Shown: positions 3,090 to 55,043, numbered from the stretch's first letter. The stretch: DNA of 64,000 nt from Escherichia coli (GCF_030384885.1 NZ_CP128615.1); one strand, 5' to 3'. Made by a program: numbers and translations. The notes: generated by a model from the letters alone, not told the origin.

Positions 3090-3130
3090 TCCCGTAATAA
3101 TTTCCGTGACGGAGACGACAGACATGAATG

Positions 3131-3292: not shown

Positions 3293-3577
3293 ATGGGCAC
3301 ATCACGTTTTACCCCTGAATTTAAGGAAGAGGCCGTCCGCCAGATCACCGAGCGGGGCTATTCTATTGCTGAAGTATCTGAACGGCTCGGCGTGTCGGCG
3401 CACAGCCTATATAAATGGCTCCGGGCTGTTAAGCCTGACAACAGTGGACAGCAGGCACAGGATTTACTGGATGCCAGAACAGAAATTCTCAGGCTGAAAG
3501 CACAGCTTAAACGCACTGAGGAAGAGCGGGATATTCTGAAAAAGGCAGCGCGGTACTTTGCAAGGGAGCCCGACTGA
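3293..3577 (+). CDS. IS3-family transposase OrfA (HTH)
   Basis: MGTSRFTPEFKEEAVRQITERGYSIAEVSERLGVS... typical IS3 OrfA with leucine-zipper-like C-terminus. Confidence 0.85.
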   Translation: MGTSRFTPEFKEEAVRQITERGYSIAEVSERLGVSAHSLYKWLRAVKPDNSGQQAQDLLDARTEILRLKAQLKRTEEERDILKKAARYFAREPD

Positions 3578-3624
3578 AGTATCGCTTTATCAACGATCAC
3601 CGTGAAATCTGGTCGATCGTTACA

Positions 3625-4212
3625 ATGTGTCGGGTCCTTAAGGTTGCCCGTGCCGGATTTTATGTCTGGCTCCATAACCCTGTATCTGCCGGAGAAAAGG
3701 ATAACCAGCGACTGCTGGAACTCATCCGCGACTCCTATACGCTGAGTGGTGGAGTTTACGGTTATCGCAGGGTTCATGGCGATCTTCGCGAAATTGGCGA
3801 AGTGTGCAGCAGAAACCGGGTTGCCAAAATCATGAGGAAAAACAGGATTCAGGCTATACATGGTTATAAAGTGCCACGCGGGAGCCGGGGACGACCGTCA
3901 CTGATAGCGCCTAATCACGTGCGGCGTGAATTTACTGTAGTGAAGCCCAATCAGGTGTGGGTCACCGACATCACCTACATCCGCACCTGGCAGGGCTGGC
4001 TGTACCTGGCAGTGGTTATCGATCTTTTTGCCCGTAATGTGGTGGGCTGGTCGATGAAGCCGACACTGTCGCGCGAGCTGGCACTGGATGCGCTGCTGAT
4101 GGCGGTCTGGCGACGTAAACCTGAAGAAAACGTCATTGTGCACAGCGATAGTAATAATGCCGATGTCAGTCTTTACCACCACTTAGTTTGCCGTTTAACC
4201 AGATTGGTGTGA
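3625..4212 (+). pseudogene. IS3-family transposase OrfB, 5' part, disrupted after the HSD motif by an IS110-family insertion
   Basis: Translation matches IS3 OrfB up to VIVHSD (about 4149) then runs into unrelated sequence and stops. Confidence 0.75.
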
Positions 4213-5525: not shown

Positions 5526-5589
5526 GGGCAGTCAGTATGGCAGTGATGACTGGCAGCGGTTCTGCCGGGCCAATAATCTGGTACCGAGC

Positions 5590-5802
5590 ATGAGCCGTCG
5601 CGGCAACTGCTGGGATAATGCAGTGGCAGAATCGTTCTTCAGTTCACTCAAAAAAGAGCGCATCAGGAAGCGGATATACAAAACCCGGGACATGGCCCGG
5701 GCGGATATTTTCGATTATATTGAAGTGTTCTACAACCGGGCCCGGCGCCACAGTCATCTCGGCGGCGTCAGCCCGGAGGCCTTCGAAAAGGCCTCGCAGT
5801 GA
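5590..5802 (+). pseudogene. IS3-family transposase OrfB, 3' part (frame open from about 5527: GSQY...SMSRRGNCWDNAVAESFF)
   Basis: C-terminal DDE-region motifs of IS3 transposases resume immediately after the IS110 insert. Confidence 0.75.
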
Positions 5803-5909
5803 GGACAGAAACTGTCTACCGGAGCGTGGTCACTCCACATTTAAAGAAACGAGCTTTGGTAAACATACCTGTAATGACTCCATAAAATGGCGCGTCAAAC
5901 GACACCTAA

Positions 5910-7985: not shown

Positions 7986-8001
7986 GTTTCACCTCAGCGC
8001 C

Positions 8002-10674: not shown

Positions 10675-13600
10675 TAGTTAACCTCCGGGGCCGAACCGGT
10701 AATGGCCTTAACATCAGCCAACAGATCACCAAACTTGCCGTAATTCACTTTCACGCCATCATCCAAATCCAGTGAAATACGCATATCAGCGTAGTGTTTT
10801 AGCTTGTCATCAAACTCGCGTAGTTCAACCTGTTTCTTGATTAAGGCATCCAACTCTTTCTTGAAGCGGTTCGCTTCACTGGTCGAGTCTGCCGTTTCAA
10901 TCTGCTTCTCAAGCTGCTCTGCATAAGCATCGTATTTGCCGAGTAACGGGGTGACATACTCGGTACGCATACGCGAAAGCGTGCCCTCGTTGTAACGGTG
11001 CAGGTAAACCAGGCACTCAAAAGCCTTCTGTTTGCCTGAGCTAAACAACCAATAAATAGGACGTTTTTTGTATGTCTTCAGGTGGTCTTTGTAGAATTGA
11101 GTCGATAAATAGCGGCGGATCGTCTCAAGAGCTGATTCTGATTTTTTGGGCTTTATGGCATTTAAGCACAGAGACTCTGCAACAAAATCGAGATTTTCTT
11201 GTAAGTGTTCTTCACCCCAAACAACTTGGACAAACTCGCGGAAACGATTGGTTGCGTCGTCCTTGAACCATTCTTGGTCGGTTAGGGGAATGATGCCATT
11301 TTCGTCGGCAGCAAAAGATTGATAAGCACCTTCGGCAACGAGTTTATCAAACCCATAATTACAAGCATGAGCGTAGACTAAGCCTTCACGATCAAGAGAG
11401 TAACGCCCCATCATGCAACCAATGGAGTAACTAATGAGTTCACAGGTTGTATCAGATTTTAACTTACTTAAATCAGTAGAATTTTCATATCGAAAAGCAG
11501 GGTTAGCAAATAATGATAGTGTTGAAATATCTATTGAAACCGGCACCGAAATTCCAAAATCATTGCATATTAAAGAATTAACTTCACTTTCCAAATTGGC
11601 TTGTTCATTAACTAGATTTAACTTCACTTCATTTAGAACCTGATAAGATTCAGCAATTTTGGCACGTTTTATTTTACACAGAGGCGAACATTCAAAGTTC
11701 CATGACGTTTCGTACATATCCCAATCAACCTTTGCGTTGGAAATTAAATCGCTCACCTTTTCAAACAATGCTTCTTTGTCAGCCTTATTGAAAATTGCCG
11801 GCAATGAGGCTATTTGACTCGTTTCATAGTTAAGCGTTGGCGAAATGATTTTTAACTGTTCCAGCACTACAGATGAGTTTAACTGAGCCAATAAGGCATA
11901 TTCTTCAATTCGAGAATTAAGAAATACTGATGCACCTGCAACGTCAAATATCGCTCCTTCAGGCTGCCATCTGAACGATGGAATTCCACTCGAAATTTTT
12001 GACCAAGTTACTGAGCTACGAAAATAAAATGCACCATTTTTCACAGTTCTAGTAGGAGACCCATACAAACTTTTAGCGTATGCAAATACCTCTTCACCTG
12101 CATTTTCCCAATTAATTACGTATTCCTGATTGCCATACCATTTTCTATATGAACCGCCTTTATTATATGGAAACCATTTGAATCCTGAGGATTCAGCTTC
12201 ATCTTTAGAACTAGAGTCATACATTGAGGTGTTTACTGGAACTTCATGCCATAGCCTTAAGAATCTATTATTATCACTTGTTTGACACCCAACTCTAGTT
12301 TTAGCAACTGACGATATTGGCGCGTCCATAAATGTATTTAATATTTCCTTGGCAACCCAATAAGCAATCGGACTCCCAGGAATCTTTTTGAAATCATCCT
12401 GAGCTGTCGCTGCAAATTCATTCTCTCTATTGAGCAATGCTTTTTGCTTTTCTTCTTCATTGCCATCTATCAGCCTATAAAAGGTAGGTTGATAATGATT
12501 GATGTGCTTATTTTGAATAATCCAGGCAGTAGTCTGTACAACCTCGCCACTAATCTGACTAAAAGCGCGTGCACCGAGGTGAGCCATAGTAATAAATGTA
12601 TGGTCTTCCAATAAATTGTTTCTTAGTTGCTCATAACTCGACAAGAACATCCACGATTGCATATTGATTTGAGCATTAAATCCATATTGAGAAAGCAATT
12701 TAAATGCTCGCTCCATAAAAATGGCAAACAAGTCTGATTTACTATTTGGGTATTGTTTCTTAGCAAACTCTTTCAAATCTGCATTCATTCCTTTTGCTCC
12801 CATATAGGGAGGATTAGCAATCACAGCATCGTAACGAATAGATAAAACCAAAGCCTGGTGAACAAACTCAATCAATTGCTTCGCTGCCAGCTTCTGCATT
12901 GAGTCGCCTGACTCTTGTAGCTCTACTAGCGTGCTCAGGAGCTCTTTTAGCTGTTCATGGTCATCGCTTGGTACATCAATCAATGAACCAAAGGTCTTGG
13001 CTTGAGTAAATCTTGCCAACGTTCGCTTCAGCAGTTGGTAGCGGTTGTCTGCATTGAACGAGCTTAAATCTTGCTCTTCGTCAGAGAACAGTCCTTGTGA
13101 TGTGCCGCTTTGCCAACTTCCCGATAGGTTGAGTGCTTTCCATAAGGTCGGCAGATCAATATGGTTACTTTCCTGCAATGACAGTACATTGAGTCGCACG
13201 TTACGGGTAAAAATACGCTTGTCGTCATCTCTCGCCATCATCATCAGGGCAAAGCCAGATAGCTGTGCTGCACGATCATCTATGTCCAAGCCGAAGAGGT
13301 TGTTCTCCAGGATCATCTTTGGAATGTCACGAGAGCGGAAACCACGTTCTTCGTAGATGGCTTTTAGTACGTTGTAAGCTTCAATCAGTATGTGGCCCGA
13401 GCCACAAGCGGGATCGAGTACTTTGATGGTTTCAGGTTCAATCGATTCTGGCGTAATAGCCTTTAGCTGTTGGTTAACTTCGTCAGATTGCTGCGCAGGC
13501 TCAATGTAGTATTCCATCTGGCTTTTAATGGCAGAGTCTGGGTAGGTTTGCAGCCATTGACGACCGACTGAGTTTTGTACCAGGTACTTTACAATCCAGT

Positions 13601-14342
13601 TAGGTGTAAATAGCTGAGTAGCGGCAGGAATGTCTTCACTTTTGACTACTTTTCCGATGACCTGATCTTTCTTTTCAGAAATGTAGAATTGGTAAAGCCA
13701 ACCAATCACTTCGACTTGTTGCCAGTCCTCTTCAGGGATGCCGTCTACCAATCCACGCAGAATGGAGTCGGTACGCATTAGGTTGTCTGGTAGCAGAAGC
13801 TCTGTTTCATCGTCCAATGCGTCAAATAAGAAAGGCATCGCTTCATGTAGCTTATGGCACTGGCCTAACAGCAGTTCACGATACAGCTCTTCGTCTTTGT
13901 TGCCCGCAAGCTTGAGTTCAACAATGCGAGCTCTATCTAATCCGAGTTCATCCGCAGCGTCTTGGGCATGGTCGATAATTTCAAAGCCTTTAGGGTTGTC
14001 TGGGTGCGACAAAACACGAAAACCGTGGCCTAGATAGTCATGGATTTCCATATAGCGAATAGCACACAGACGGTTGAACCAGGTATAAGCTACTTGTTCA
14101 ATAAGTTGTGCATACCCAAGTTTCTGGCTTCTGGCTACTATGCGTTTTCTGGGCTCGGCCAGTTTACCGTCAAAACTGTTACCAGCGATTTGAAGCACAG
14201 AACCTTGTAGATTCGCTTCTGCAATTTGTAGCTCGCCCTTTTTATTCGCGGTGATACCAAAGGTATTTAATCGTTTAGCTACCGCATCCATAAATTCGCG
14301 GCGCGCTTTTGGTGCGTATTTTTTAATGTTGTTCGTATTCAT
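10674..14342 (-). CDS. pglX: BREX N6-adenine DNA methyltransferase PglX
   Basis: 1222 aa; contains the amino-methyltransferase motif IV NPPY (VIANPPYMGAKGMN) and an AdoMet-binding-like LDPACGSGHIL motif. Confidence 0.9.
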   Translation of the reverse strand: MNTNNIKKYAPKARREFMDAVAKRLNTFGITANKKGELQIAEANLQGSVLQIAGNSFDGKLAEPRKRIVARSQKLGYAQLIEQVAYTWFNRLCAIRYMEIHDYLGHGFRVLSHPDNPKGFEIIDHAQDAADELGLDRARIVELKLAGNKDEELYRELLLGQCHKLHEAMPFLFDALDDETELLLPDNLMRTDSILRGLVDGIPEEDWQQVEVIGWLYQFYISEKKDQVIGKVVKSEDIPAATQLFTPNWIVKYLVQNSVGRQWLQTYPDSAIKSQMEYYIEPAQQSDEVNQQLKAITPESIEPETIKVLDPACGSGHILIEAYNVLKAIYEERGFRSRDIPKMILENNLFGLDIDDRAAQLSGFALMMMARDDDKRIFTRNVRLNVLSLQESNHIDLPTLWKALNLSGSWQSGTSQGLFSDEEQDLSSFNADNRYQLLKRTLARFTQAKTFGSLIDVPSDDHEQLKELLSTLVELQESGDSMQKLAAKQLIEFVHQALVLSIRYDAVIANPPYMGAKGMNADLKEFAKKQYPNSKSDLFAIFMERAFKLLSQYGFNAQINMQSWMFLSSYEQLRNNLLEDHTFITMAHLGARAFSQISGEVVQTTAWIIQNKHINHYQPTFYRLIDGNEEEKQKALLNRENEFAATAQDDFKKIPGSPIAYWVAKEILNTFMDAPISSVAKTRVGCQTSDNNRFLRLWHEVPVNTSMYDSSSKDEAESSGFKWFPYNKGGSYRKWYGNQEYVINWENAGEEVFAYAKSLYGSPTRTVKNGAFYFRSSVTWSKISSGIPSFRWQPEGAIFDVAGASVFLNSRIEEYALLAQLNSSVVLEQLKIISPTLNYETSQIASLPAIFNKADKEALFEKVSDLISNAKVDWDMYETSWNFECSPLCKIKRAKIAESYQVLNEVKLNLVNEQANLESEVNSLICNDFGISVPVSIDISTLSLFANPAFRYENSTDLSKLKSDTTCELISYSIGCMMGRYSLDREGLVYAHACNYGFDKLVAEGAYQSFAADENGIIPLTDQEWFKDDATNRFREFVQVVWGEEHLQENLDFVAESLCLNAIKPKKSESALETIRRYLSTQFYKDHLKTYKKRPIYWLFSSGKQKAFECLVYLHRYNEGTLSRMRTEYVTPLLGKYDAYAEQLEKQIETADSTSEANRFKKELDALIKKQVELREFDDKLKHYADMRISLDLDDGVKVNYGKFGDLLADVKAITGSAPEVN

Positions 14343-14357
14343 ATGATCTTGCGCCTC

Positions 14358-16121
14358 TTATTCTGTCTCTACGCTGTTTGCGGGTTGTAATGCGGTTCTA
14401 ATGCGGGCAAGCAGTGTTTCCTGACGCTCGCGGTAAAAGTCCATAAACTGGTTTAGTTGTTCAGGTAATGATGTTATGGCTTGCGATTGCAGATGTGCTT
14501 GTCTTGCATTCACATCAGGCCACTGCTGCGCATACCATTCATGGGGCATTTTTTGCCGCTTCTGGTTGTTGATTGTCCCTTCCAACAGTTGAAGGTTTGG
14601 CAGCTTGTTAGATGCCTCGATGAGTTCATCTAGCTGTTCAGCTGGGACACCAACTTTTGCAAGCTTGTTACGCGTAAACAAACCTTTGGGGTAAATGTGG
14701 TCCACATGAAAGTGTCGTGAAAAATCGAATCCTGGGAACAACAAAGTCAACAAGGCAAAGGTACGCGGATTACCATAATCCAACTGCGCTAGTTCACTAA
14801 TTTCCTCTGGGTCAAAGCGCAACGATTTACCACGCTGTTGCATGGTCGCTTCAATTTTCGCTAGCGGGAAACCCGTATCACCCGATTGTTTAATGTCTGA
14901 GCGAAGCATAGTAAGCAGGGTATCCAAACCACTTCCCCAGATGCCTGACGCTTTCAACAACGACCTAATGAGCCAGTTTCTGATGCATTCTCTATCGACC
15001 GCATATTCAACCCTAGAAAGGTAGCTTGCCGTTAACTTTCGGTGGTGCAGGTAATAGGCTAACGGGAGGATGGCACTTGTTGCTCTGAGGTTTTGTGCAT
15101 TAAAACCAAAACTTGCCAGCAACTGCATTGAGAGCAATAACGCATCACGAATTGGCGTCCAGTTCTTTTCGAGAATCGCCATATTTTCCTTGTTAAAGTT
15201 CTCAACCTTAAAGCCCACGCTACCGATGTCAGAGAGCATTAAGCCTGCTTTTAAAACGAGATCTTTTGATACGTTGAATCCATCACCAACACGGTTCATC
15301 TCATCCACTAAGGCATGAATTTCTTCACGGGCATCTAACGAGCTCCACTGCGCTACGGCTATTGAAAGTAGTAAGTCTGAGTAGGACAAAGTAGTGCCGC
15401 CGCTATTCATGCGGATAAAGATATTCAGAACACGTTCAAGGCTCTGATCACTTTCTTCGTAAAACGAAATCTTATCTTTGTCATGGATAGTTCGATACAA
15501 GTGACGAAGAGTTGAGCGAGCCTCTTTGCGTTGCTCCGAGCTCAACCTAGCATCATCAGCAACTTCATCGATAAGTGCATCTTCTTCCTCTTCCATGATC
15601 CGGCCTACACGGAACCAGTATTGTTCAGATGCATCCAAAGAGGCTTTATCGTCGGTTAGGAACTCAAAGTCATACATCGACCCAGTTTCTAAGTCGGGCT
15701 GGCTTAACAGATTTAAGTGAAGCCTGCGCACTGGGAAGGCGTCATCATTGCTCCACCATTTACCTGTCAGCTTCCACGCAAATGAGCCGCGTAGGCCGAT
15801 GTTCAAAGCGGTAATCCGCTGCTGTCCATCTAGGACGGCAATGAACTCACGCTCTGGTAACTGAGTGACATTTTCACAATGGTAGTTATCTCGCTCATGG
15901 TAATGCTGCATGAACTGATAAAACTGATAGCTATGCCGGTTCTCTGGTTTTATCTTCCAGAATAGAAAGGTCCCAAACGGGTAACCTTGCAACAGGCTAT
16001 CAAATAGACGACAGATCTGTTCTGGTCGCCATACAAACTCTCGCTGGATGGCCGGTAACAGGTATTCCTGCTCAGCAACCTTGTCGAGTAATGATCTTAT
16101 TGTTCCACCCGCTTGATACAT
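14358..16121 (-). CDS. brxU: GmrSD-family type IV restriction endonuclease (DUF262 plus DUF1524), BrxU-like, embedded in the BREX locus
   Basis: 587 aa; N-terminal DUF262 motifs (LPAIQREFVW, DGQQR), C-terminal DUF1524 His-Me finger motif (HVDHIYPK); sits between brxC and pglX. Confidence 0.75.
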   Translation of the reverse strand: MYQAGGTIRSLLDKVAEQEYLLPAIQREFVWRPEQICRLFDSLLQGYPFGTFLFWKIKPENRHSYQFYQFMQHYHERDNYHCENVTQLPEREFIAVLDGQQRITALNIGLRGSFAWKLTGKWWSNDDAFPVRRLHLNLLSQPDLETGSMYDFEFLTDDKASLDASEQYWFRVGRIMEEEEDALIDEVADDARLSSEQRKEARSTLRHLYRTIHDKDKISFYEESDQSLERVLNIFIRMNSGGTTLSYSDLLLSIAVAQWSSLDAREEIHALVDEMNRVGDGFNVSKDLVLKAGLMLSDIGSVGFKVENFNKENMAILEKNWTPIRDALLLSMQLLASFGFNAQNLRATSAILPLAYYLHHRKLTASYLSRVEYAVDRECIRNWLIRSLLKASGIWGSGLDTLLTMLRSDIKQSGDTGFPLAKIEATMQQRGKSLRFDPEEISELAQLDYGNPRTFALLTLLFPGFDFSRHFHVDHIYPKGLFTRNKLAKVGVPAEQLDELIEASNKLPNLQLLEGTINNQKRQKMPHEWYAQQWPDVNARQAHLQSQAITSLPEQLNQFMDFYRERQETLLARIRTALQPANSVETE

Positions 16122-16137
16122 AGTTATCCGTTGCCTC

Positions 16138-19100
16138 TTACTTAATTCTTACTCGGTCGCCAGCTTTGACCGCAGCAATCAGCTGCTCTCTTAAAGCGGC
16201 AAGATAGGCATCAACTTCGGCTTCACTTTCAATGAATCCGGTTGTTACTGACTTAGCCATGGCATCGGTTGAGTTAATCGTTACGGTACGTTTTGCAACC
16301 GGCTGTGGCTGCACTGGTTCAGAGGCTGGCTCAGGTGCTGGAGCTGCTTTACCGGCTTTCGCTGCTTCCTCTTCGCGTGTCTGCTGTTCGAGTTCACGAC
16401 GTCTTTGCTCAGCTTCAGCTTTTTTGCGTTGATCTTCGATAAAGCCATTCAGCAACTCATAGGCTTCGTCCTCGTAACCTTCCGCTTCAGTTTGCTCACT
16501 GATAATTTGTGGTATTGAAGAGGTCGCTTCAATACGCTGTCTGCACATTTGTAACGGGCGCAGTGCTTGGTTCTGTAATTCAGACGGTGCATGAGCTTCA
16601 GCTAGCGCTTCTTTTACACGTCCGATGCGCAGATCAACACGCTCTAAGGCATGAGTGCGTTTTTCTTCAACCAATGTTGAGTTAATTTTTGCCACCTGCT
16701 CGATAAGCGGATTAATGTGGCGCAGCTGCTCATACGGCGAGGGCATATTGTAAATGCGTTCTAATTCAGTGAGCGCTTTTAATGCTTCACTGTCTTTTTC
16801 TAACGCAGGTCTATTGGCCTTAAACTTCTCGTTCAATGCGCCAGCAAGGGCTTGCCAAGTTTGAAATTGGCTATTGTAGAAGTCATCAAGATCCTCAAAG
16901 TCCTCAGCAAACTCTTCAAGGGCATCAGCGTTTTCTAAGAATCGGGTGATAAGAGCGAAGCTTGAAGTTTGCTCAAGAATACCCGCGACCAATGCAAGAC
17001 CATCGTCAATTTGAGATTTACCTGGGAAATGGCCTGTCTGTGACTTGGTTCTGAATGATTTAAGCTCTTCATTCCAAGCCAGTAATTCATCGCGCACTAA
17101 TTCGTAGAGCTCCTTTTCACCAGAGCCGGTAAAGGTTTTTGAAAAGATCTCTTTAACAAGACCAGCAGCCTTTTTGATTTGGCGCTCGTCATGTTGCCTG
17201 ATTTTATGTACACGGATCTCACCGCGTTTACGCACGCTGGTAAACGGCTCGTAAGCTTTTTTCAACGCCAGATCTGTGCCCTGGGTACTAAAAGATAACT
17301 TTCCAGCCAAGCCCAGCCTTGCAGTGAGCAATAAGATTTCATTGTCTGGCCAGCCATACGGGCGCTTGCCGAAGTGGGCAACGATGTCACGTAAGTAAAC
17401 AGGCTCATTACGCTCGACTTTTAGCGTTACGTACTGCTCAACCTCACGCGTAGCTTCTGGGTTACATTCATCCGCTTGAAGATCCAGTCCAATCTGAGCA
17501 ATATCATCAGCAACAAGTACGGCCTGTAGCTCACGCAAAACTTCACCAGGCGTCGCCTTGAGCATGTTCAATTTAGCGAAGGTGTTTTCGATAACGTATT
17601 TGTATGCTTCTTCGACGATGGCACTTGGCGTTGCTGATTTCTTCGGTAGTTTTGTGCCGATAGCGTAAACGTCAGCCTCTGCAAACAAAGCTTCAAAATC
17701 CGTTCTTAAGCGTTTTTCACGCTCAATATTTTCCATCTGCTTTTCGCGGAGAAGGTGTTCTTGCTCTGGTCGCTGTCCTGAATTTTGTTTTAAGAATCGG
17801 TCAGTTTTTATAAAGGTTGTCAGGTCATCCCAAAGACGTTTATGTTCGCCCAGCTTGACGAGCACGCACCCATCAGCCTCAAGCGTATGATTGATGCAGG
17901 CTTGATCGTGGGAGTAATTTTCAAAGTGCGAATCCAAAGGTGAAATGACTTTAATGACTAGATCTTCCAGCGTGGTGCCATCTTTTGGATGACCATTGCA
18001 AAAACGGCTCACCGCAAAGTCTTGCTTATTAATCGGGTATCGATAGGCACGATTACCTTTCAAAATACCGTCAAATACGATTGCTGAAAGCTTGTTAGAG
18101 ACCTCTGACATTTCAACGTCAGTGTGGCGGATCTCGTTTTCAATCTCTTTTTCTTCGTTGGTCAGGAAGATAAATTCATCACCATTACGCGCAATCAGCA
18201 ATTGGCGTTCAAGACGATTCAAGCTCTCTTCAATTTGTTTACGCAGCGCAATTTTATCTGCATCGATTCGATCAATTGACAGCGTCACAAGGTTGTCTAG
18301 TGTGCTTTTGACAACGTCCACATAACGGATCAAGAAAAGAGTTTTTAGAATCTTGCCATCGAATTCTGTTAAGGAATCCAACTCACAGGCTTGGTCAATC
18401 GTTCGCTTAACCGCTGGCTCCAAAAAGCTTTCAATCGGTGCATAGAAACTGTAAAACGGGATTAACACATCAAGGCCAGAGTCCTTCATCTGTTTTGCAG
18501 CTGATTGGAAAGCATCAAGTAATGAACGCTCACCCATGGCTAAGTGCTTACCCGTCGCGCCTTTTGTTCGAATTGACTCAAACACTTTTTGAACCAGCGT
18601 GTAGTGGTAAGGCACAAACGGATAGTTGTCCACGAAAGACGGAGCGTCGGTGTAGCCCTTTAGAGACGCAGTTGTCGTTTTATCAAATGTCAGCTGGTTA
18701 CGAAGAATGTCGCCCTTTTCAGCAAACACATCGATGAGGTGTGTACGAGCTTCTTCCGTTTTGGACAACAAACGCTTTTGAATAACTTCCGAGGTATTCG
18801 AGCTCGACAGCTGCAAGCGGGTACTAAAACGCCCTTGAATTTTAGAGAAGTCCTCGCCATCGCGCTTATCCATACCACCAATGGCAGCATCAATGTCTGC
18901 CTGAGAGGTAACAACGACCCAAGCTCTGCCACCACAATATGTGCCAAGATCTTCAGTAATGGTCTGAAGCTTCAACATCATTTGTGTGTTCTTACCGATA
19001 AACTGACCGACTTCATCGACTAAGAAAAGAAGGTTACGATCTCCAGTTCGATCTAAGTATTCATTAACCCACTTACAGAAGTTTCGGATATCTAGCGGGA

Positions 19101-19815
19101 AATTGTTTTCAACCTGTTCAACCCACGCTTTGGCAGACTCTAATGATTGCTCACTGGCATGAGCGAGTGCTTCTGAAAGTTCGTCTCGATAGAAGTCATA
19201 GGCGTCACGCTCCTTTTCCCAAGTTGATTGAGTCAACTCAGCAAATTTGTCCTTGAAAGACATGTATTGATTACGCTTATCAAGCTCGCGTTCTAAATGC
19301 GCAATGTGAGGAAAATCAGCGCAGTATCCTACACGCTCATTAAAGACTTTGAGGAAGACCTTAAGAATGGCATTTTCTCGGTCATCCGTATTGGCTCGTG
19401 AATCGATGTTAAAAAGAATAACATCAGTGTCTTTGGTAACAGCGTTTTGGATATCGGCCAACAGCATGGCATCGTTGATTTTGTCTTTAAAAAACTCAAA
19501 TGCTTGACGGCCTTGGCCATCCTTTTCGACAGACTTATTTTCGAGGAGGTAAGACAAAATTTTCAGGAAGTGAGACTTACCCGAACCAAAGAAGCCAGAG
19601 ATCCACACACCAATTTTTCCTGACATTGATGCGCCACTTTGCGTCACAGATGGAACGTAAGCCTCAAAGAAAGCGCGAAAATGTCGATCTAGCTCTCGGG
19701 TTACAACATACTCATCAAGTTCGACATACACACTGTCATTGTCTTTCTGTTCCGCTTTAACAACGCCGTTAATATCACGCGTCAACTTCTTGGAAAAAAT
19801 CTGTTCAATTTTCAT
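16138..19815 (-). CDS. brxC: BREX ATPase BrxC/PglY
   Basis: 1225 aa; Walker A GFFGSGKSHFLK near N-terminus; position after brxB. Confidence 0.85.
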   Translation of the reverse strand: MKIEQIFSKKLTRDINGVVKAEQKDNDSVYVELDEYVVTRELDRHFRAFFEAYVPSVTQSGASMSGKIGVWISGFFGSGKSHFLKILSYLLENKSVEKDGQGRQAFEFFKDKINDAMLLADIQNAVTKDTDVILFNIDSRANTDDRENAILKVFLKVFNERVGYCADFPHIAHLERELDKRNQYMSFKDKFAELTQSTWEKERDAYDFYRDELSEALAHASEQSLESAKAWVEQVENNFPLDIRNFCKWVNEYLDRTGDRNLLFLVDEVGQFIGKNTQMMLKLQTITEDLGTYCGGRAWVVVTSQADIDAAIGGMDKRDGEDFSKIQGRFSTRLQLSSSNTSEVIQKRLLSKTEEARTHLIDVFAEKGDILRNQLTFDKTTTASLKGYTDAPSFVDNYPFVPYHYTLVQKVFESIRTKGATGKHLAMGERSLLDAFQSAAKQMKDSGLDVLIPFYSFYAPIESFLEPAVKRTIDQACELDSLTEFDGKILKTLFLIRYVDVVKSTLDNLVTLSIDRIDADKIALRKQIEESLNRLERQLLIARNGDEFIFLTNEEKEIENEIRHTDVEMSEVSNKLSAIVFDGILKGNRAYRYPINKQDFAVSRFCNGHPKDGTTLEDLVIKVISPLDSHFENYSHDQACINHTLEADGCVLVKLGEHKRLWDDLTTFIKTDRFLKQNSGQRPEQEHLLREKQMENIEREKRLRTDFEALFAEADVYAIGTKLPKKSATPSAIVEEAYKYVIENTFAKLNMLKATPGEVLRELQAVLVADDIAQIGLDLQADECNPEATREVEQYVTLKVERNEPVYLRDIVAHFGKRPYGWPDNEILLLTARLGLAGKLSFSTQGTDLALKKAYEPFTSVRKRGEIRVHKIRQHDERQIKKAAGLVKEIFSKTFTGSGEKELYELVRDELLAWNEELKSFRTKSQTGHFPGKSQIDDGLALVAGILEQTSSFALITRFLENADALEEFAEDFEDLDDFYNSQFQTWQALAGALNEKFKANRPALEKDSEALKALTELERIYNMPSPYEQLRHINPLIEQVAKINSTLVEEKRTHALERVDLRIGRVKEALAEAHAPSELQNQALRPLQMCRQRIEATSSIPQIISEQTEAEGYEDEAYELLNGFIEDQRKKAEAEQRRRELEQQTREEEAAKAGKAAPAPEPASEPVQPQPVAKRTVTINSTDAMAKSVTTGFIESEAEVDAYLAALREQLIAAVKAGDRVRIK

Positions 19816-32191: not shown

Positions 32192-32499
32192 GATGTCTCC
32201 TTGGTTGAAGGCGGCTTAAGTGCACTTTCTGTTCCGTTGTGCCTCAAAGCCCATTTCTGTCAGGCTGAAATCTATAACCTTCGCGGGCATGTGTCAAAAA
32301 ATGGGAAAGCAGACTCTATTCTGACGAAGCGGCGCGCCCTGCCTGACATCAAGTTAGGGTATAGCCTAGATTGACATGCGCGATGCAACCCTTAACTTGC
32401 TTGCACCTATCGTTTCCATGCTAGCTTTATCGTAACGCTCAAGAAATTGGGCTTAATGCCGAAAACAATAAAATAAAACAGCCAACCCTTGAGGTTCTT

Positions 32500-34077
32500 A
32501 TGCGCCAGAATTTACCAGTGACGGGTCGAAACTTAGAACTCCCAAAAGATGCCAATATTCTTTCGACTACCTCCCCTCAAAGCCATATCACGTACGTTAA
32601 TCCTGACTTCATTAAAATCAGTGGTTTCACTGAGGAAGAACTATTAGGCCAGCCTCACAACATCGTAAGACACCCAGATATGCCGCCTGCTGCATTTGAG
32701 CATATGTGGAGTACATTAAAATCTGGCCGCTCATGGATGGGGCTAGTAAAAAATCGCTGTAAAAATGGCGACCACTATTGGGTAAGTGCTTATGTAACGC
32801 CAATAGCTAAGAATGGTTCGATTGTTGAATACCAGTCTGTAAGGACCAAGCCTGAACCTGAGCAGGTTTTGGCTGCGGAAAAATTATATGCTCAATTGAG
32901 AAGCGGGAAGGCCGCGAGGCCGAAATTGGCTGCTAGCTTTTCCGTGAAAATACTCTTGCTCATATGGGGTAGTATTATATCAAGCGCAATGGCTGCCGGC
33001 ATGCTTACTGATACATCAATAAGCAGCTTATTGTTAGCCACTTTAATGTCAGGAAGCTTAAGCTCTGTTAGTGTTTTGGCTATTCTCTCTCCTCTTGGAA
33101 GACTGGTTGAAAGAGCCAGGAATATTTCCAATAACCCATTAAGTCAATCCCTCTACACTGGGCGCACCGATGAGTTTGGCCAAATAGAGTTTGCTTTACG
33201 AATGATGCAAGCTGAAACAGGCGCCATAGTAGGTCGCATAGGTGATGCATCAAATCGGCTTAGCGAACACACCCGAGGCCTACTAAAGGATATTGAGTCA
33301 AGCAATGTACTTACAGTTGAGCAGCAGGCAGAGACAGATCAAATAGCAACGGCAGTAAACCAAATGGTGGCAAGCATTCAAGAGGTTGCGAGCAATGCAC
33401 AGCATGCTGCAGATGCGGCCGGAAGAGCAGACACTGAGACGGCATCTGGCCAGCGTCTGGTAGCCCACACAAGCCAGTCAATCACTGCCCTTGAAGGTGA
33501 AATTAGGCAAGCCACTCAGGTTATTCATGAGCTTGAAGGTCAAAGTAACGAGATATCAAAAGTTCTTGACGTTATACGAGGGATCGCCGAGCAAACGAAT
33601 TTGTTGGCACTCAACGCAGCAATTGAGGCCGCGCGTGCTGGTGAGCAGGGGCGTGGTTTTGCTGTTGTCGCCGATGAGGTTCGCAGTCTTGCTGCTCGCA
33701 CACAGCAATCGACAACGGATATTCAAAGCATGATCAGCGCTCTACAAGAGCGAGCGCAATCCGCTGTTACAGTCATGGAGCAAAGTAGTCGGCAAGCGCA
33801 CACGAGTGTAGCTCACGCAGAGGAAGCAGCTACAGCTCTTGATGGAATTGGCCAACGCGTTAACGAAATTACCGACATGAACGCGCAAATAGCGACTGCG
33901 GTCGAGCAGCAGGGAGCAGTAAGTGAAGACATAAACCGCAGTATTATCAATATACGCGATGCTGCTGATACCAATGTACAGACCGGGCAGAATAATTTGC
34001 AAAGTGCGAAATCTGTCGCTCAGTTAACTAGCGCTCTGAGCGAACTGGCAAAACAGTTTTGGGAAAAACGAGGATAA
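32500..34077 (+). CDS. Methyl-accepting chemotaxis-like protein (Tn1721 orfI / mcp)
   Basis: 525 aa with PAS-like N-terminus, two hydrophobic segments and a C-terminal MCP signalling domain ([30 protein letters not shown]). Confidence 0.8.
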
Positions 34078-34228
34078 CGCTTTTCAGTATCTCGACAGGG
34101 ATAACTTACTTTACCATCGGTTATCCCTTTTAGCCGCACAAATTTTAGCCATGGCTTTTCAGGAAGTCAGGGCTATCAGAATGGCCTTAGAAAGCCTAGT
34201 CAAAGAGCTGTCACGAGAACACCGTTAG

Positions 34229-34266
34229 CTTAGCGTACGATTTTTTCCGAATTCTGCGGTTCCCCC
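34229..34266. repeat. Tn1721 outer 38-bp terminal inverted repeat
   Basis: Reverse complement of GGGGGAACCGCAGAATTCGGAAAAAATCGTACGCTAAG. Confidence 0.8.
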
Positions 34267-34300
34267 TTAATTTCAGTATCTGTTATTACAGTTGGGTATC

Positions 34301-34372
34301 GGTGATGCTGCCAACTTACTGATTTAGTGTATGATGGTGTTTTTGAGGTGCTCCAGTGGCTTCTGTTTCTAT
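34301..34372 (+). mobile_element. IS1 left-end fragment (first 72 bp)
   Basis: GGTGATGCTGCCAACTTACTGATTTAGTGTATGATGGTG... then abuts a Tn3-family inverted repeat. Confidence 0.85.
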
Positions 34373-34806
34373 GGGGTCAGTTTGGATATCGAAAATTATT
34401 GTACGTTAAGGTCGTTTTTTGACCTTTCTACTTTAGCTGGCCTCAGCCGACGAAACTTACCGGAGGCCGGTATTCTGTTGTTTTTCCAGATGTAATCGCC
34501 TGTCAGATTGATATGCTCCCAGCCTAACGGCGACAAATGTGACAGCAGTTGCTCGTTGATCTTCACCCCTTTACGCTTCAGGGCATCGACCGCTCTTTCC
34601 ATATACACTGTATTCCACAGCGAGATAGTTGCTGTCAGCAGCGTCAGTCCACTGGCGCGGTAGCTCTGATTTTCCGGTTTACGATCCCTGATTTCACCCA
34701 GACGGTGCAGGAATACCGCGCGCGCTAGAGAGAGCTCCCATCGCTGCGCGACGGGCCCCAACCGGAGAACCAAGTTAGTTACAGCATTCAGATGAAAATT
34801 CATCAT
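34373..34806 (-). pseudogene. Tn3-family transposon end: 38-bp IR (34373-34410) plus C-terminal fragment of TnpA
   Basis: IR GGGGTCAGTTTGGATATCGAAAATTATTGTACGTTAAG; ORF fragment ...[17 protein letters not shown]...[17 protein letters not shown] matches TnpA C-termini. Confidence 0.7.
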
Positions 34807-35250
34807 AAAACCGGCGCCGGTTTGCCAGCCAGGAGCCCCTCCCCACCACTGAAAAGCGCCGCCGCCCCCGGCCGAAGGCCGGGAGTAGTGTCGCTTTTAA
34901 TGATGGGTGTTGTAACTACTCTTCGTCATCTCTGTGAGTAGTGTCGCGGTAAGTTCTGGGATACACGCTCGTAAGCGGCCCTAACGGCCCGCTAACGCGG
35001 AGATACGCCCCGACTGCGGCTGTCGCCTTGCCGGGACCACTCCGACCGCGTACAGAGGCATCTGAGCCGTTTTTAGCGGGTATAGCTTTGCAGGGAAGGG
35101 GGTGGGTGAGGCAGAACCTGTCAAAACAGCAGCCGGCTGCGCCGGGCGACGGCGCCATTTACCCGCAGTACTCCATTCAACTTCAGCTGGCGCCTCCATG
35201 CCGCTGACGCGGCATTATCTATACTTTAAGTCTGGCCACTGGAGGTAACC

Positions 35251-35335
35251 ATGTGCGGACGTTTTTCTCAGTCTATGACGCGGGAAGAGTATCTTTCTCT
35301 CCTCGCCAATGAAGCCGATCGAAATATTGCCTACG
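35251..35335 (+). pseudogene. N-terminal fragment of an SRAP (YedK/HMCES-like) peptidase gene, truncated by IS903
   Basis: MCGRFSQSMTREEYLSLLANEADRNIAY; the MCGRF N-terminus is the SRAP hallmark; cut at the IS903 end. Confidence 0.5.
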
Positions 35336-35463
35336 GGCTTTGTTGAATAAATCAGATTTCGGGTAAGTCTCCCCCGTAGCGGGTTGTGTTTTCAGGCAAT
35401 ACGCACGCTTTCAGGCATACCTGCTTTCGTCATTTTGTTCAGCGCTCGTACCAGGGCCATAGC
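35336..35463 (-). mobile_element. IS903 right-end segment (part of an IS903 copy split by Tn5393)
   Basis: 128 bp identical to the last 128 bp of IS903 in reverse orientation; continues at 42169-43102. Confidence 0.85.
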
Positions 35464-35496
35464 GGGGTCGTTTGCGGGAGGGGGCGGAATCCTACG

Positions 35497-38382
35497 CTAA
35501 GGCTTTGGCCAGCGATATTCTCCGGTGAGATTGATGTGTTCCCATCCGAGCGGCGAAACATGGGCCAAGAGATCGGGCGATAGCAGCTTTCCATCGCGTT
35601 TCTGGTTTGCAACGACCTCGCCGAGCTTCATGGTGTTCCAGAAGATGATGATGGCGGCGAGCAGATTCATGCCGGCGATGCGGTAATGCTGGCCTTCGGC
35701 GGAACGGTCGCGGATTTCACCGCGGCGGTGGAAGCTGATTGCCCGCTTCAGCGCATGATGAGCTTCGCCTTTGTTGAGCCCGATCTGGGCACGCCGTTGG
35801 AGTTCGGCATCCAGAATCCAGTCGATCATGAACAGGGTGCGCTCGACGCGACCGACTTCCCGCAGGGCTGTCGCGAGCTCGTTCTGCCGCGGATAGGAGG
35901 CGAGTTTCCGCAGAATCTGGCTTGGCGCGACGGTCCCGGCAGCAATGGTGGCGGCGATGCGCAGGATGTCGGGCCAATTGCGCTCGATCATGGCTTGGTT
36001 GACCTTTCCGCCGATCAACGCTCGCAGGTGCGCCGGGGCGGCCGACGGATTGAACGCGTAGAGCCGTTTGGATGGCAGGTCGCGGATGCGCGGAGCGAAC
36101 CGGTAGCCGAGAATGGCACATGCGGCAAAGACGTGATCGGTGAAGCCGCCCGTGTCGGTGAACTGCTCGCGGATATGGCGTCCAGCATCGTTCATCAGCA
36201 GGCCATCGAGGATGTAAGGCGCTTCGCTTGCCGTTGCAGGAATCACCTGGGTTGCGAACGGCGCATATTGGTCGGAGACGTGGCTATAGGCTTTCAGGCC
36301 CGGGGTATTGCCATATTTCGCGTTGACCAGGTTCATGGCCTCACCTTGCTCTGTAGCGACGAAGAACTGTCCGTCGCTCGAAGCCGACGTGCCCATGCCC
36401 CAGAACCGGGCCATGGGTAACGCTGCCTGTGCCTCGACCACCATGGCCAGCGCCCGGTCATAGGCTTCGCCCTCGACATGCCACCGTCCAATGCGGATCA
36501 ATTCCCAGAAGGTGTGGGTGTTTGTCGCATCCGCCATTTTGCGCAAGCCGAGGTTGATCCCTTCCGCCAAGATAACGTTCATTAGCCCGATCCGGTCAGC
36601 GCAGGGTGCTCCTGTGCGCAGATGGGTGAACGCTTCGGTGAAGCCGGTCGCCGCATCCACCTCCAGCAGGAGATCGGTGATGCGCGTGGGCGGGATCTGC
36701 TTGTAGAGATCGAGCACCAGATCTTCGGCGCCTGTCGGCGCGGCGGCTTCGAGTTTCTCGATATGCAGAACGCCGTTTTCAATCGACCCGCCCGGGATCG
36801 TGCCTGCGCGAGCGGCACGGCCAAGCTCGCGCAACCGCATGTCGAGGCGAGCTTGCCGGTCTGCCAGCCATTCCTCCGGCCGCAATGGCACAGCGAGACG
36901 ACCGCCTTCCGCGATGGATTGTGCCGGAACGAGTGCGTGTTTCAGATCGCCATAGCGCCGGGACCTAGTAAGCCAGACATCTCCGGAGCGGAACGCATCG
37001 CGCAGATGGAACAGCACCGCGATCTCCCATAGGCGAGCGTCGCCAGCCCTCTGGGCCCGAAGGTGGCGATGCCATTTCGAGCTGGGCCGCAAGAAGCTGG
37101 TCATCGCGGCATCGTTCAAACCGGTACGAAGGGCCGTCACCGCTTCCAGAAGCGGCAGTGCAACGGGCGCAGCTCGCAGATCGAGCAGGCGCAACATGCG
37201 TGGAGCGTATCGGCGGAAGCGGTGATAACCGTCGAGCACATGATTGAGCGGATCGTCGGCCATGGTGGCGGTCAGCCTGGTTGCCATTGCAACAAGGGTT
37301 TTTAAGCCGTCCCACCCTGACCCACTCGCGATGACATCGCCCAGCGGCTGGCCATCATCCTGTGCATCGACCAGGGCGCCCCCGATCTCGGCGAAGGATT
37401 TCAGGGTGTCACGCACCACCCCCGCTTCGTCTGCGACCTTTGCATGGCAAATACGCTCCGAAGCACGGTAGAGACGGCCGACGATCCGGTCGTGGGTTTC
37501 GACCACTGCGTCGGCCAACATCGCCTGCCATTCCGAGACGCAAACAGCCAAGATCGCAAGCCGCCTGTCCTCCGGGAGATCGCGCATGCCGTCGGCATAA
37601 TACCGTTCACCCTGCCTGCGCAGACGAGTCACCCGATGGGCAGGAACGCCGGCAAGCAGATCCTCGGGGAGATCGATGCGTTGCAGATATTCGAGCCGGT
37701 CGAGCAGCCGGTTGGCCGACGAAGAGTTCGAGCCAGGCTCGAACTGGCGCAGCCACACAAAACGGGTCACCCGATCATCAGCCGTCTCCTCGAGCAATGC
37801 CAGCAACTGTTCTCGGATCGACATAGGCAGCCGACTGGCGATCCTCGTCTCGATGCGTCGCTCGGCATCGACGAGAGCCGCGGCACAAAGCCGCTCGATC
37901 GTGGATGTCGCGGGAAGGACAGTGCGGGTGCGTCGGCACTCGGCTACGAAGCGACGGGCGATATCCTCGTTCGACACCGCCATCTCGGCTTCTCGGAACA
38001 ACCATTCCTTCAGCTCGCTCGCACCACGTCCGGAGAAGGTGCGGAAGCCGTAGAGCCCCCGTAACTCGGCAAGATGCTCGTGCCGTGTTTCCTCGCGGGC
38101 AGCATAGTCTACGAGATCGTCGGCACCCAGGCCAAGCTGCGCTCCGATAAATTCGATGACCTCTGCAGGGATCAGTTCGCCTGGAGCCAGCACCCGGCCG
38201 GGATAGCGCAGGACACACAATTGCAGGGCGAAGCCGAACCTGTTGTGAGCGCGCCGACGCAGCCTGATATGCCCAAGGTCTTCATCACTCAGCGTATAGT
38301 GCTTGAGCAAATCCGTCTGTGAAGTCGGCAAGCGCAACAGCGCGTCTTTCTGCCGATCGGTTAGAGTGACGCGACGCGGCAT
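35497..38382 (-). CDS. tnpA: Tn3-family transposase TnpA (Tn5393)
   Basis: 961 aa MPRRVTLTDRQKDALLRLPTSQTDLLKHYTLSDEDLG... Confidence 0.9.
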   Translation of the reverse strand: MPRRVTLTDRQKDALLRLPTSQTDLLKHYTLSDEDLGHIRLRRRAHNRFGFALQLCVLRYPGRVLAPGELIPAEVIEFIGAQLGLGADDLVDYAAREETRHEHLAELRGLYGFRTFSGRGASELKEWLFREAEMAVSNEDIARRFVAECRRTRTVLPATSTIERLCAAALVDAERRIETRIASRLPMSIREQLLALLEETADDRVTRFVWLRQFEPGSNSSSANRLLDRLEYLQRIDLPEDLLAGVPAHRVTRLRRQGERYYADGMRDLPEDRRLAILAVCVSEWQAMLADAVVETHDRIVGRLYRASERICHAKVADEAGVVRDTLKSFAEIGGALVDAQDDGQPLGDVIASGSGWDGLKTLVAMATRLTATMADDPLNHVLDGYHRFRRYAPRMLRLLDLRAAPVALPLLEAVTALRTGLNDAAMTSFLRPSSKWHRHLRAQRAGDARLWEIAVLFHLRDAFRSGDVWLTRSRRYGDLKHALVPAQSIAEGGRLAVPLRPEEWLADRQARLDMRLRELGRAARAGTIPGGSIENGVLHIEKLEAAAPTGAEDLVLDLYKQIPPTRITDLLLEVDAATGFTEAFTHLRTGAPCADRIGLMNVILAEGINLGLRKMADATNTHTFWELIRIGRWHVEGEAYDRALAMVVEAQAALPMARFWGMGTSASSDGQFFVATEQGEAMNLVNAKYGNTPGLKAYSHVSDQYAPFATQVIPATASEAPYILDGLLMNDAGRHIREQFTDTGGFTDHVFAACAILGYRFAPRIRDLPSKRLYAFNPSAAPAHLRALIGGKVNQAMIERNWPDILRIAATIAAGTVAPSQILRKLASYPRQNELATALREVGRVERTLFMIDWILDAELQRRAQIGLNKGEAHHALKRAISFHRRGEIRDRSAEGQHYRIAGMNLLAAIIIFWNTMKLGEVVANQKRDGKLLSPDLLAHVSPLGWEHINLTGEYRWPKP

Positions 38383-54176: not shown

Positions 54177-55043
54177 CTATTGTTTTTTATCAAGAAAATT
54201 AAACAGCAAGCGACCATCTTCTTCAGTGGTATATGTTACCTTTAATGGCGTCTTCTCATTAATTTTCTTCAGAGCAGGTTCCAGGAAGGTACGCTTCATT
54301 TCAGCAATATTGTTTTTCTGCGAGGCAGGGAGCATAAACCTTTCACATAACCAGTCATGTGTGGTGATCCAGACACCAGTGCTCCGGAACTGACACAGGC
54401 TTTCATAAAGCCGGATGACACGAACACTATTAAGCTGGCCACAGTCATAGAGAGAATAGGTAGTGAACTGGGAGGTTAAGCCGACCAGGAATGGCATGAC
54501 CTTGTAGTTAAATTCAATCTGCCAGGAACCCCGGCCTCGCTTCATTCCTGCTTCAGCCAGCCACGGACGTTTAACTTCTTCAAACTCACCTTCTTTTGGA
54601 TAAAAGGTAACCGTTGATTCGCCCAGAGCATTTACCCCAGCCTTCACATCACGACTGGCGACAGACGTAGCGACATTGAAGTATTTGACGTAATCGGAAA
54701 CGCTGATTTTGAAGAGCGGCAATACGTCAGAGTCATCTTCCTGGCTGTCATTAAAATAGGCCTGCATGAGGCATAACCACAGCACACGTTTTGCCTGAAG
54801 AGGCAGGTAATATGCAGCTTCGGTCAATTCGTTAGATTGCTTTATACTGGCGCGTTTTTTAAACGTTTTAGTAGCTGGCAAGAGTGCTTGAGTATCCATT
54901 TCAATGCCTATGGGTAAATTTTTACCCACCCATAATGACAGTGAAAACAGAAATTGCAAGCTATCGCGATACTTATCCACCGGAAAAATCTGCACTTTAT
55001 CCACAAGTGGATAATTGAGAACTGAACTTGACCTCTTTCCCAT
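54177..55043 (-). CDS. repA: Rep_3-family replication initiator RepA (RepE of F-like)
   Basis: 288 aa; ...IKQSNELTEAAYYLPLQAKRVLWLCL...VIRLYESLCQFR... parallels F RepE. Confidence 0.85.
   Translation of the reverse strand: MGKRSSSVLNYPLVDKVQIFPVDKYRDSLQFLFSLSLWVGKNLPIGIEMDTQALLPATKTFKKRASIKQSNELTEAAYYLPLQAKRVLWLCLMQAYFNDSQEDDSDVLPLFKISVSDYVKYFNVATSVASRDVKAGVNALGESTVTFYPKEGEFEEVKRPWLAEAGMKRGRGSWQIEFNYKVMPFLVGLTSQFTTYSLYDCGQLNSVRVIRLYESLCQFRSTGVWITTHDWLCERFMLPASQKNNIAEMKRTFLEPALKKINEKTPLKVTYTTEEDGRLLFNFLDKKQ

Follow-up and report, generated by a model that had tools for sequence, protein, structure and literature searches.

The question raised by this locus is what an unannotated, GC-rich and hairpin-dense stretch (34850-35250) represents between a Tn3-family remnant and a truncated SRAP gene in the window, that is, in the whole 64,000-nucleotide (64-kb) stretch of Escherichia coli DNA analysed here. 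An earlier reading of this DNA, made without database searches and referred to below as the sequence-only reading, had offered two answers, a structured non-coding RNA or a degraded coding region. Our results lead to a different one. The element is of an already characterised kind, known from plasmids R1 and R100, and is neither an RNA gene nor a broken protein gene. With a rough probability of 85%, the GC-rich stretch is an orphan IncFII post-oriR (ter/leading-strand-start) region.

The location had been described correctly, and Pfam and tblastn matches identify the neighbours on both sides as follows.

34267-34726, minus strand: Tn3-family remnant, the 3′ end of tnpA (last ~105 codons; Pfam DDE_Tnp_Tn3).
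35252-35335, plus strand: SRAP (SOS response-associated peptidase) stub, the first 28 codons (tblastn 100%, residues 1-28 only).
35336-35463, no strand assigned: IS903B end fragment, 100% identical to the annotated IS903B ends (records L001 and L002 = pC1-MCR-NDM).

On the left, residues 26-105 encoded by the ORF at 34399-34806 match positions 310-389 of the 389 in the DDE_Tnp_Tn3 profile (E = 1.8e-25). On the right, the IS903B fragment truncates the SRAP gene and is in turn cut short by the Tn3-family element that follows (tnpA 35497-38382).

The GC-rich, hairpin-dense character of the stretch is also genuine, with a GC content of 0.58-0.63 over 34700-35200 and hairpins beyond those of shuffled sequences. 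The hairpin at 34852-34898 has a folding z of -3.2/-3.3 on either strand, none of 200 shuffles being as stable, and over 34926-35222 the minus strand gives z = -2.2 (matched by 2/200 shuffles) and the plus strand z = -0.1. The sequence-only reading had further pointed to repeated motifs. Indeed, GTAGTGTCGC is present in two exact copies (34885-34894 and 34938-34947) in the 64-kb window, where 0.06 would be expected by chance and 0/100 shuffles give two; the pair can be extended to a 25-nt direct repeat, in which copy 2 has 76% identity to copy 1. The first copy sits in the 3′ internal loop/arm of the hairpin at 34852-34898. An alignment of 17 plasmids, however, revealed the decamer to be lineage-specific, most homologues having other sequences at both positions. 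Since neither copy is conserved among homologues, GTAGTGTCGC was rejected as a functional iteron or binding motif; judging from this alignment, the repeated decamer is real in the window copy yet incidental, and is no conserved functional motif.

It is homology and synteny that identify the stretch, as part of a somewhat longer module with a recognisable internal order.

34727-35215, no strand assigned: orphan IncFII 'post-oriR' module (repA4/ter/leading-strand-start) of the FII(K) lineage, assigned by homology and synteny.
34737-34755, no strand assigned: small origin-proximal hairpin, CCCATCGC-TGC-GCGACGGG, found in 17/17 aligned plasmids.
34776-34789, minus strand: terRL-like site, GNRNGTTGTAAYKA with one mismatch (GCTGTAAC in place of the core GTTGTAAC).
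34852-34898, no strand assigned: long GC-rich hairpin between the ter sites, AAAAGCG...CCGGCC-GAAG-GGCCGG...CGCTTTT, with the z values given above.
34900-34922, plus strand: terRR, a full-consensus Ter site (predicted Tus-binding), with the exact consensus at 34905-34918.
34938-34947, plus strand: second GTAGTGTCGC copy, within a variable spacer and mostly not conserved in homologues.
34963-35093, minus strand: 131-nt core, composed of hairpin A (34970-34997), hairpin B (34998-35044), a 46-48-nt spacer and a terminal CAG (35091-35093).
35094-35215, no strand assigned: distal part of the module, with a G-rich tract, CCGGC/GCCGG and CGCCG/CGGCG hairpins (35133-35155) and a terminal hairpin.

The module shares 89-92% identity with its counterpart in pC1-MCR-NDM and 73.7% identity with R100 (window 34735-35215 = R100 6039-6519, 481 bp). 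It matches more than 5000 plasmid records, mainly conjugative F-type plasmids of Klebsiella and Escherichia, at identities ranging from 100% to ~73%. Its position in intact replicons is remarkably constant: in 16/16 intact plasmids (pC1-MCR-NDM, pO111_3, R100 and thirteen others) the module starts ~370-420 bp past the repA stop codon, repA lies upstream in every intact homologue whose annotation covers that part, and a DnaA box (TTATCCACA, at +176 in R100) and the AT-rich oriR come directly before the module in the three plasmids checked (pC1-MCR-NDM, R100 and pO111_3). By contrast, what follows the module varies by plasmid. The cargo is SRAP in FII(K) plasmids, and DUF2913-umuDC, tir-like/pemIK, yacAB or hypothetical genes elsewhere; R100 has a CPBP protease with pemIK. 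Since the cargo differs among plasmids, the module must be regarded as a part of the replicon rather than of the SRAP gene, and it would act as DNA. Thus, the search for homologues upstream of SRAP genes that had been proposed earlier confirmed a non-coding region with conserved structure, but not the association with SRAP: in intact plasmids it is IncFII repA and oriR that precede the module, and unrelated cargo follows it. A role as an SRAP leader or regulator was rejected on the same grounds, the downstream gene not being constant.

The secondary structure elements are conserved along with the position. In the 17-plasmid alignment, the small hairpin at 34737-34755 shows a compensatory T-A to C-G change in the R100 group. 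In the long hairpin at 34852-34898 the outer arms are invariant and the inner stem covaries (GGCC/GGCC, GCCC/GGGC, CGCCC/GGGCG). The distal part has a long-range stem, GGCGCC...GGCGCC, which covaries with GGCGG...CCGCC in R100. Its terminal hairpin ATGCCGC-TGAC-GCGGCAT (35198-35215), which marks the end of conservation, also covaries, ATGCCGC/GCGGCAT being replaced by ATGCGCC/GGCGCAT in some plasmids.

The resemblance to R1 and R100 extends to the succession of elements (a small hairpin, an inverted ter, a long hairpin, the second ter, the conserved block with its two hairpins and then the distal hairpins), to the equal position that intact relatives of the module hold relative to repA and oriR, and to the inward-facing orientation of the ter sites in the window, which is as described for R1. 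There are also differences. The module of the window belongs to the Klebsiella FII(K) lineage and not to the R1/R100 lineage, its proximal ter carries a core substitution and the repA4 ORF of R100 is not preserved in it. The foremost difference is the orphan state of the window copy, the 64 kb containing neither repA nor copA/copB nor oriR. In R100-type replicons the ter sites belong to the repA4 region, and a transposon-insertion screen placed repA4 among the elements needed for stable maintenance of pEC958 (PMC4398462).

The two ter sites of the window (34905-34918 on the plus strand, exact; 34776-34789 on the minus strand, one mismatch) are inverted and face inward. Within the 64 kb, only terRR matches GNRNGTTGTAAYKA exactly; it agrees with the Ter consensus throughout, including G6 and the GTTGTAAC core. 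Its 27-nt context, CGCTTTTAATnATGnnTGTTGTAACTA, is invariant in 17/17 plasmids, and of the 58 genome-contig copies that were scanned, 34 have a Ter+ site at the same offset (-80 to -87). The terRL column is less uniform: R100-type, Enterobacter-type and other plasmids have the perfect GTTGTAAC core, and the FII(K) lineage, window included, has GCTGTAAC throughout. Counting Ter hits with at most one mismatch gives 4 in the window, with 1.3 expected and 5/100 shuffles reaching 4; as this is not clearly above chance, it is the exact match, together with its conservation and position, that makes the case for the ter sites. Position 6 of Ter faces the non-permissive side, and the two sites accordingly face each other, so that terRL is predicted to be oriented against forks moving toward lower coordinates (leftward) and terRR against those moving toward higher coordinates (rightward). 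The T to C substitution within GTTGTAAC may abolish Tus binding to terRL across the FII(K) lineage.

Both Klebsiella and Escherichia, the hosts of the matching plasmids, encode tus. The window sites resemble the Tus-Ter traps of the E. coli chromosome and of R6K in the 14-nt consensus GNRNGTTGTAAYKA with its conserved G at position 6 and in forming an inverted pair, an arrangement that forks can enter but cannot leave (PMC10331603). They differ in being only ~130 bp apart, one of them being imperfect, and in that IncFII-type sites adjoin the origin, enforcing unidirectional replication, instead of lying opposite to it. An arrangement of ter sites like that of the window has been described for plasmid R1 in a review (PMC10331603), and loss of Tus leads to multimers, rolling circles and instability (PMC10331603; PMC4999828).

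The module does not read as a gene. The earlier observation that only short ORFs are present and that nothing recognisable is encoded held: the three internal ORFs (80, 72 and 59 aa) had no Pfam match. One might still argue for a degraded protein-coding region, such as an R100-type 'repA4' ORF or a frameshifted gene, since some E. coli plasmid records list small ORFs overlapping the right half as hypothetical proteins or 'RepA4' and ORFs of 72-80 aa exist on the minus strand of the window. However, a search of the 17 homologues for a frameshifted ordinary gene found no shared reading frame: not a single frame is open in all 17, and indels are nearly all of 1-2 nt, with the total length constant at 286-290 nt. 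Moreover, the R100 repA4 start, ATGGCTGAAAGC, reads GCCGTTTTTAGC in the window, with a TAG that lies, however, outside the repA4 frame. Finally, conservation peaks at hairpins and predicted protein-binding sites and is not codon-like. Taken together with the missing Pfam matches, these observations make a coding origin scarcely credible.

The best conserved part of the module is the block 3′ of terRR, which shows zero variation among the 17 plasmids. Its distribution turned out to be much wider than that of the rest. In a scan of one genome per species, the 22-mer at 34988-35009 was found exactly in 57 loci from many Enterobacterales genera (Citrobacter, Pantoea, Erwinia, Yersinia pestis, Edwardsiella, Pectobacterium, Serratia, Shimwellia, Izhakiella, Mixta and others). 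At many of these loci a recognisable IncFII RepA ends 600-770 bp upstream and Ter sites occur at the expected offsets; where enough upstream sequence was available, an IncFII_repA-family gene usually preceded the core. A search of a phage collection with the core gave zero matches. Several replicon families share only the part from window 34961/34963 to ~35100, with both flanks unrelated. The core edges are thus sharp, ACACGC on the left (34963) and GCAG on the right (35093). The RepA proteins upstream in these diverged families can be assigned to IncFII_repA at the Pfam level only (E = 1.6e-7, 7.6e-5 and 2e-5, the second of these at 22.7 bits, just below the Pfam cutoff of 22.9 bits), and in one Edwardsiella locus the upstream Pfam search returned no match, that is, no detectable RepA. 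Hence, the core has remained ~85-100% identical where the RepA initiators have diverged almost past recognition, which points to a probable constraint imposed by host machinery and not by the plasmid RepA.

Covariation lends support to both core hairpins. Among 65 distinct sequences, hairpins A and B are Watson-Crick paired in 96.6% of pair cells. Double changes occur at 6 pairs, in 35 cells, compared with a mean of 7 and a maximum of 14 after column shuffling (0/500 shuffles reach 35), and a control in which the partner column was slid by 1-3 columns gave 1-9 double-change cells. Most core positions are invariant and hence uninformative on pairing. Hairpin A has a C.C mismatch that is kept in 60/65 sequences, the adjoining pair toggling between C-G and T-A. 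Such covariation of the hairpins is equally compatible with RNA.

The two strands of the core are not equivalent. Non-canonical cells are mainly A.C on the plus strand, corresponding to G.T on the minus strand (12 vs 3, a count that excludes one doubtful terminal pair). Folded as single-stranded DNA, the core gives the same two hairpins with well-defined centroids on the minus strand in the window and in R100 (z = -1.6 and -2.1), and no defined structure on the plus strand (z = -0.3 and -0.55). For a leading strand moving away from repA, the direction of the main fork in R1, the template is the minus strand. The asymmetry favours this strand.

These data also bear on the proposal that the stretch encodes a structured non-coding RNA, which might be an sRNA or the 5′ leader of SRAP. 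The sequence-only reading was right about non-coding sequence and conserved secondary structure; the RNA itself found no support. Compensatory base-pair changes are the very signal that an RNA would give, and the changes compatible with G.U pairing fall on the minus-sense strand. On the other hand, the Rfam covariance-model scan suggested earlier, run over 33500-36500 at E<=1, found no match inside 34727-35215; the nearest one, isrL at 34082-34179, lies outside the module and scores 18.5 bits (E = 0.022) against a gathering threshold of 35. A promoter/terminator scan of the module revealed no promoter-like site and nothing above chance. The sequence upstream of the core is wholly different between replicon families and, with core flanks unrelated, a conserved promoter or terminator is ruled out. 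A leader of SRAP is further disfavoured by a downstream gene that varies between plasmids. The element, moreover, usually follows an IncFII-family repA, and both ter sites and a DNA start are documented downstream of that gene (PMC10331603). We consider an RNA at this locus highly improbable.

What, then, could the core be doing as DNA? The chances are about even that it represents the G-site, a primase recognition site from which the leading strand starts, with the start placed at 35092. The trinucleotide CAG (CTG on the template) stands at the very end of the core in 62/65 sequences, and in 58/65 its distance from hairpin B is 46-48 nt. E. coli primase starts at CTG, and in the phage G4 record the annotated primer begins at such a triplet. 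In several plasmids a different segment of ~190 bp begins exactly after GCAG; a new segment at this very point indicates that nothing fixes the sequence past the triplet, in line with a stretch that is only copied. In R100, the terminal CAG maps to +726-728, ~370 bp past the right end of oriR (taken as +171 to +358). The leading strand of R1 and R100 reportedly starts ~380-400 bp downstream of oriR, at a primase-only 'G-site'. The position of the CAG agrees with this distance. In R100 there is a further CTG (GTACTGAG) directly 3′ of hairpin A, but it is not conserved in other lineages. We set it aside as a general start, as it is missing in most lineages and lies ~240 bp from oriR.

The comparison with the phage G4 origin, which requires the same proteins as the G-site, DnaG and SSB, is instructive in both directions. 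Common to both are stable hairpins in a single-stranded template beside a CTG and a total length of ~110-130 nt. However, local alignment of G4 oric with the module and with R100, on both strands, did not exceed shuffles (a score of 22 for the core, with shuffles averaging 17.7 and reaching 28), so that there is no significant sequence similarity between the module and G4 oric. The geometry is different too. In G4 the CTG is preceded on its 5′ side by the hairpins, of which hairpin I is copied into the primer; the hairpins of the core lie 3′ of the conserved CTG, across a 46-48-nt spacer, and the copied sequence is variable. Thus, the core may work like a G4-type signal, although it is no sequence relative of G4 oric.

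The same comparison leaves room for a different assignment, in which the core is another single-stranded DNA element, either a PriA-type site resembling the n′ site of phiX174 or a DnaA/ABC-primosome site, and the G-site lies in 35095-35215 or at another CTG. Besides the lack of significant similarity to G4 oric and the placement of the core hairpins on the 'wrong' side of the CTG relative to G4, this assignment could invoke the plus-strand AAGCGG in hairpin A, which we take to be the hexamer shared by n′-type sites, and the presence of covarying hairpins in the distal region as well. Yet a lagging-strand primosome site would be expected on the plus strand, and both folding and mismatch asymmetry favour the minus strand. 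Diverged replicons lack the distal region and have kept the core alone, and the CAG at the core edge is near-universal and has a fixed spacing. On balance, a primosome site in place of the G-site seems unlikely to us.

The assignment of the core as G-site can also be carried further. Throughout the IncFII-RepA superfamily, the core may act as a universal priming element dictated by the host primase, with a non-G4 architecture in which the recognition hairpins would lie 3′ of the start triplet, at a fixed distance of ~47 nt, and synthesis would begin at the edge of the element. The core is far better conserved than the initiators it would serve. Orphan copies of such an element, the present one among them, might even fire as priming sites or, together with terRR, half-trap forks in unrelated IncR replicons. 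We offer this extension as a tentative idea, one that is on the whole doubtful.

The history of the window copy can be traced by comparison with pC1-MCR-NDM. Window 32258-34266 corresponds to pC1-MCR-NDM 1434-3443 at 98.7% identity, a segment that includes a Tn1721-type PAS/MCP gene and little beyond, and window 34727-35335 corresponds to pC1-MCR-NDM 5898-6534. The intervening 2.45 kb (3444-5897), which encompass a phospholipase D-family gene, repA2, tap, repA and oriR, have been replaced by a 460-bp Tn3-family remnant that now holds their place. The SRAP gene, which in FII(K) plasmids is cargo after the module, is intact in pC1-MCR-NDM (6450-7124). A search for IncFII repA or oriR across the 64 kb found none. 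The window copy is consequently not located downstream of an IncFII repA and oriR on the same molecule, and this makes it a fragment of a replicon and not a working member of the family. The closest plasmid records are typed as IncR, and the window has a Rep_3/RepE-like initiator of its own at 54180-55043. We conclude that the module is, as far as sequence comparison can tell, an orphan relic on an IncR-type plasmid, derived from a pC1-MCR-NDM-like ancestor. With repA, the control genes and oriR deleted, it is unable to function as a replicon, and the most that could be left is binding of Tus by terRR. In being a piece left behind by a transposon- or IS-mediated deletion within a multiresistance region, with a Tn3-family remnant, IS903B and IS26 flanking it in close relatives, the module resembles other orphan replicon fragments of mosaic IncR/IncF plasmids. 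It differs from them in that what is left of the IncFII replicon is just its accessory cis region, the rep gene used for replicon typing being gone.

A relic may nevertheless have been retained for a reason. In the IncR plasmid pKPN103_3 the left junction is different, but the module is kept from about the same point, a pattern compatible with common descent from an IncR/IncFII hybrid or with some retained use. In the latter case terRR, with or without the priming site, would still serve the Rep_3 replicon as a fork barrier or anti-multimer device. The perfect consensus of terRR would suit such a role, as would the ~300 plasmid records that carry the fragment at >=99% identity and the fact that the window and pKPN103_3, with differing left junctions, both keep the module. 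However, the abundance is explained by hitch-hiking with the widespread resistance region and its Tn1721-type mcp/tetA, IS26, IS903B and Tn3-family elements. In addition, the orphan copies show no sequence sign of selection and, with terRL degenerate, at best half a trap is left. A retained use is therefore quite improbable, and we regard the window copy as a relic.

Overall, the results can be put together in the following working model. In an intact IncFII plasmid such as R1 or R100, RepA opens oriR, and the host primase starts the leading strand a few hundred bp downstream, replication proceeding unidirectionally and leaving repA behind. The region between oriR and the start holds two inverted ter sites that form a small fork trap, the proximal ter stopping the short backward fork and the distal ter stopping the main fork after one round of the plasmid, thereby preventing over-replication and multimers. 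The core, folded in single-stranded DNA, would be the site recognised by DnaG and SSB (the 'G-site'), and primer synthesis would proceed from the CTG at 35091-35093 toward higher coordinates. In the window, repA, the control genes and oriR have been deleted and replaced by the Tn3-family remnant, and SRAP has been cut by IS903B. For this model, homology, synteny, the ter consensus, the conserved structure and the orphan status come from the present analysis and the function of ter in R1 from the literature; that the core is the G-site, and where exactly synthesis starts, we infer.

The biology of ter sites and of the G-site has been known since about 1988-1997. A possible novelty is the 131-nt core, superfamily-wide and with sharp boundaries, along with its non-G4 geometry, neither of which we have met in the literature accessible to us. 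Thousands of plasmid records either carry no annotation over this stretch or give spurious 'hypothetical protein' calls there, and the module is easily taken for an RNA gene or a pseudogene. Recognised for what it is, an IncFII ter/start module flags IncFII ancestry that replicon typing based on rep genes would miss. In the present case, it also reveals how an IncR-type resistance region was built up, through deletion of repA-oriR by a Tn3-family element and truncation of SRAP by IS903B. Finally, a core conserved across Enterobacterales far beyond RepA provides, for a large family of plasmids, a precise definition of the probable primase recognition site.

Aligned with pC1-MCR-NDM (L002), an intact IncFII relative, window segments 32258-34266 and 34727-35335 flank a 460-bp Tn3-family remnant at a place where that plasmid carries 2.45 kb. 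The 2.45 kb missing from the window comprises a PLD-family gene, repA2, tap, repA and oriR. Judged from this alignment, the window looks like the product of a deletion in a pC1-MCR-NDM-like arrangement. The plasmid records closest to the window are typed as IncR, and the molecule is probably maintained by the Rep_3/RepE-like replicon listed here with the other called features.

Called features of the window
34399-34806, minus strand: chimeric ORF, 136 aa
54180-55043, minus strand: Rep_3/RepE-like replication initiator, 288 aa
14361-16121, minus strand: further, unassigned ORF of the BREX operon, 587 aa
4431-5504: IS110-family transposase near the BREX operon

The chimeric ORF spans the junction between the Tn3 remnant and the IncFII relic: its first ~25 codons come from DNA of IncFII origin that includes the terRL-like site, and similarity to the C-terminus of a Tn3 transposase is confined to residues 26-105. 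Some public records label it 'Tn3 family transposase'. Just past the PAS/MCP gene, window 34082-34179 (plus strand) weakly matches the Rfam family isrL, an sRNA that binds Hfq, with 18.5 bits where the gathering score is 35 (E 0.022); the aligned part is the terminator-like 3′ end only, and the match is probably due to chance.

Several plasmids from Klebsiella, Serratia and Pantoea have an alternative segment, about 190-210 bp long, that starts exactly past the conserved GCAG closing the two-hairpin core (window 35093). It lies at 2160-2350 in compared sequence L007 and is also present in L020, L024, L027, L050 and L062. The usual G-rich tract returns 3′ of this segment, together with another CAGGG. 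The conserved GCAG, after which the segment begins, is the candidate primer start.

Elsewhere, the minus strand of the window (5913-19815) carries, on this plasmid, an anti-phage operon of BREX type 1 that looks complete, with genes for BrxL, PglZ type A, the methyltransferase PglX and BrxC.

Some of the contigs that contain the 22-mer of the IncFII core (L026, L029, L031, L040-L043, L060) bear the labels Streptomyces morookaense, Lachnospiraceae, Clostridiales, Collinsella and Sporosarcina; most likely these are contamination by enterobacterial plasmids, or MAG contigs assigned to the wrong bin. Two genomes each hold several separate core copies, six in Pantoea stewartii CCUG 26359 (L020-L025) and five in Erwinia typographi M043b (L055-L059), the latter with the degenerate ter-like sequence TGCCACAACT in the terRR position. 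Such multiplicity suggests that many IncFII-family replicons are co-resident in these two genomes.
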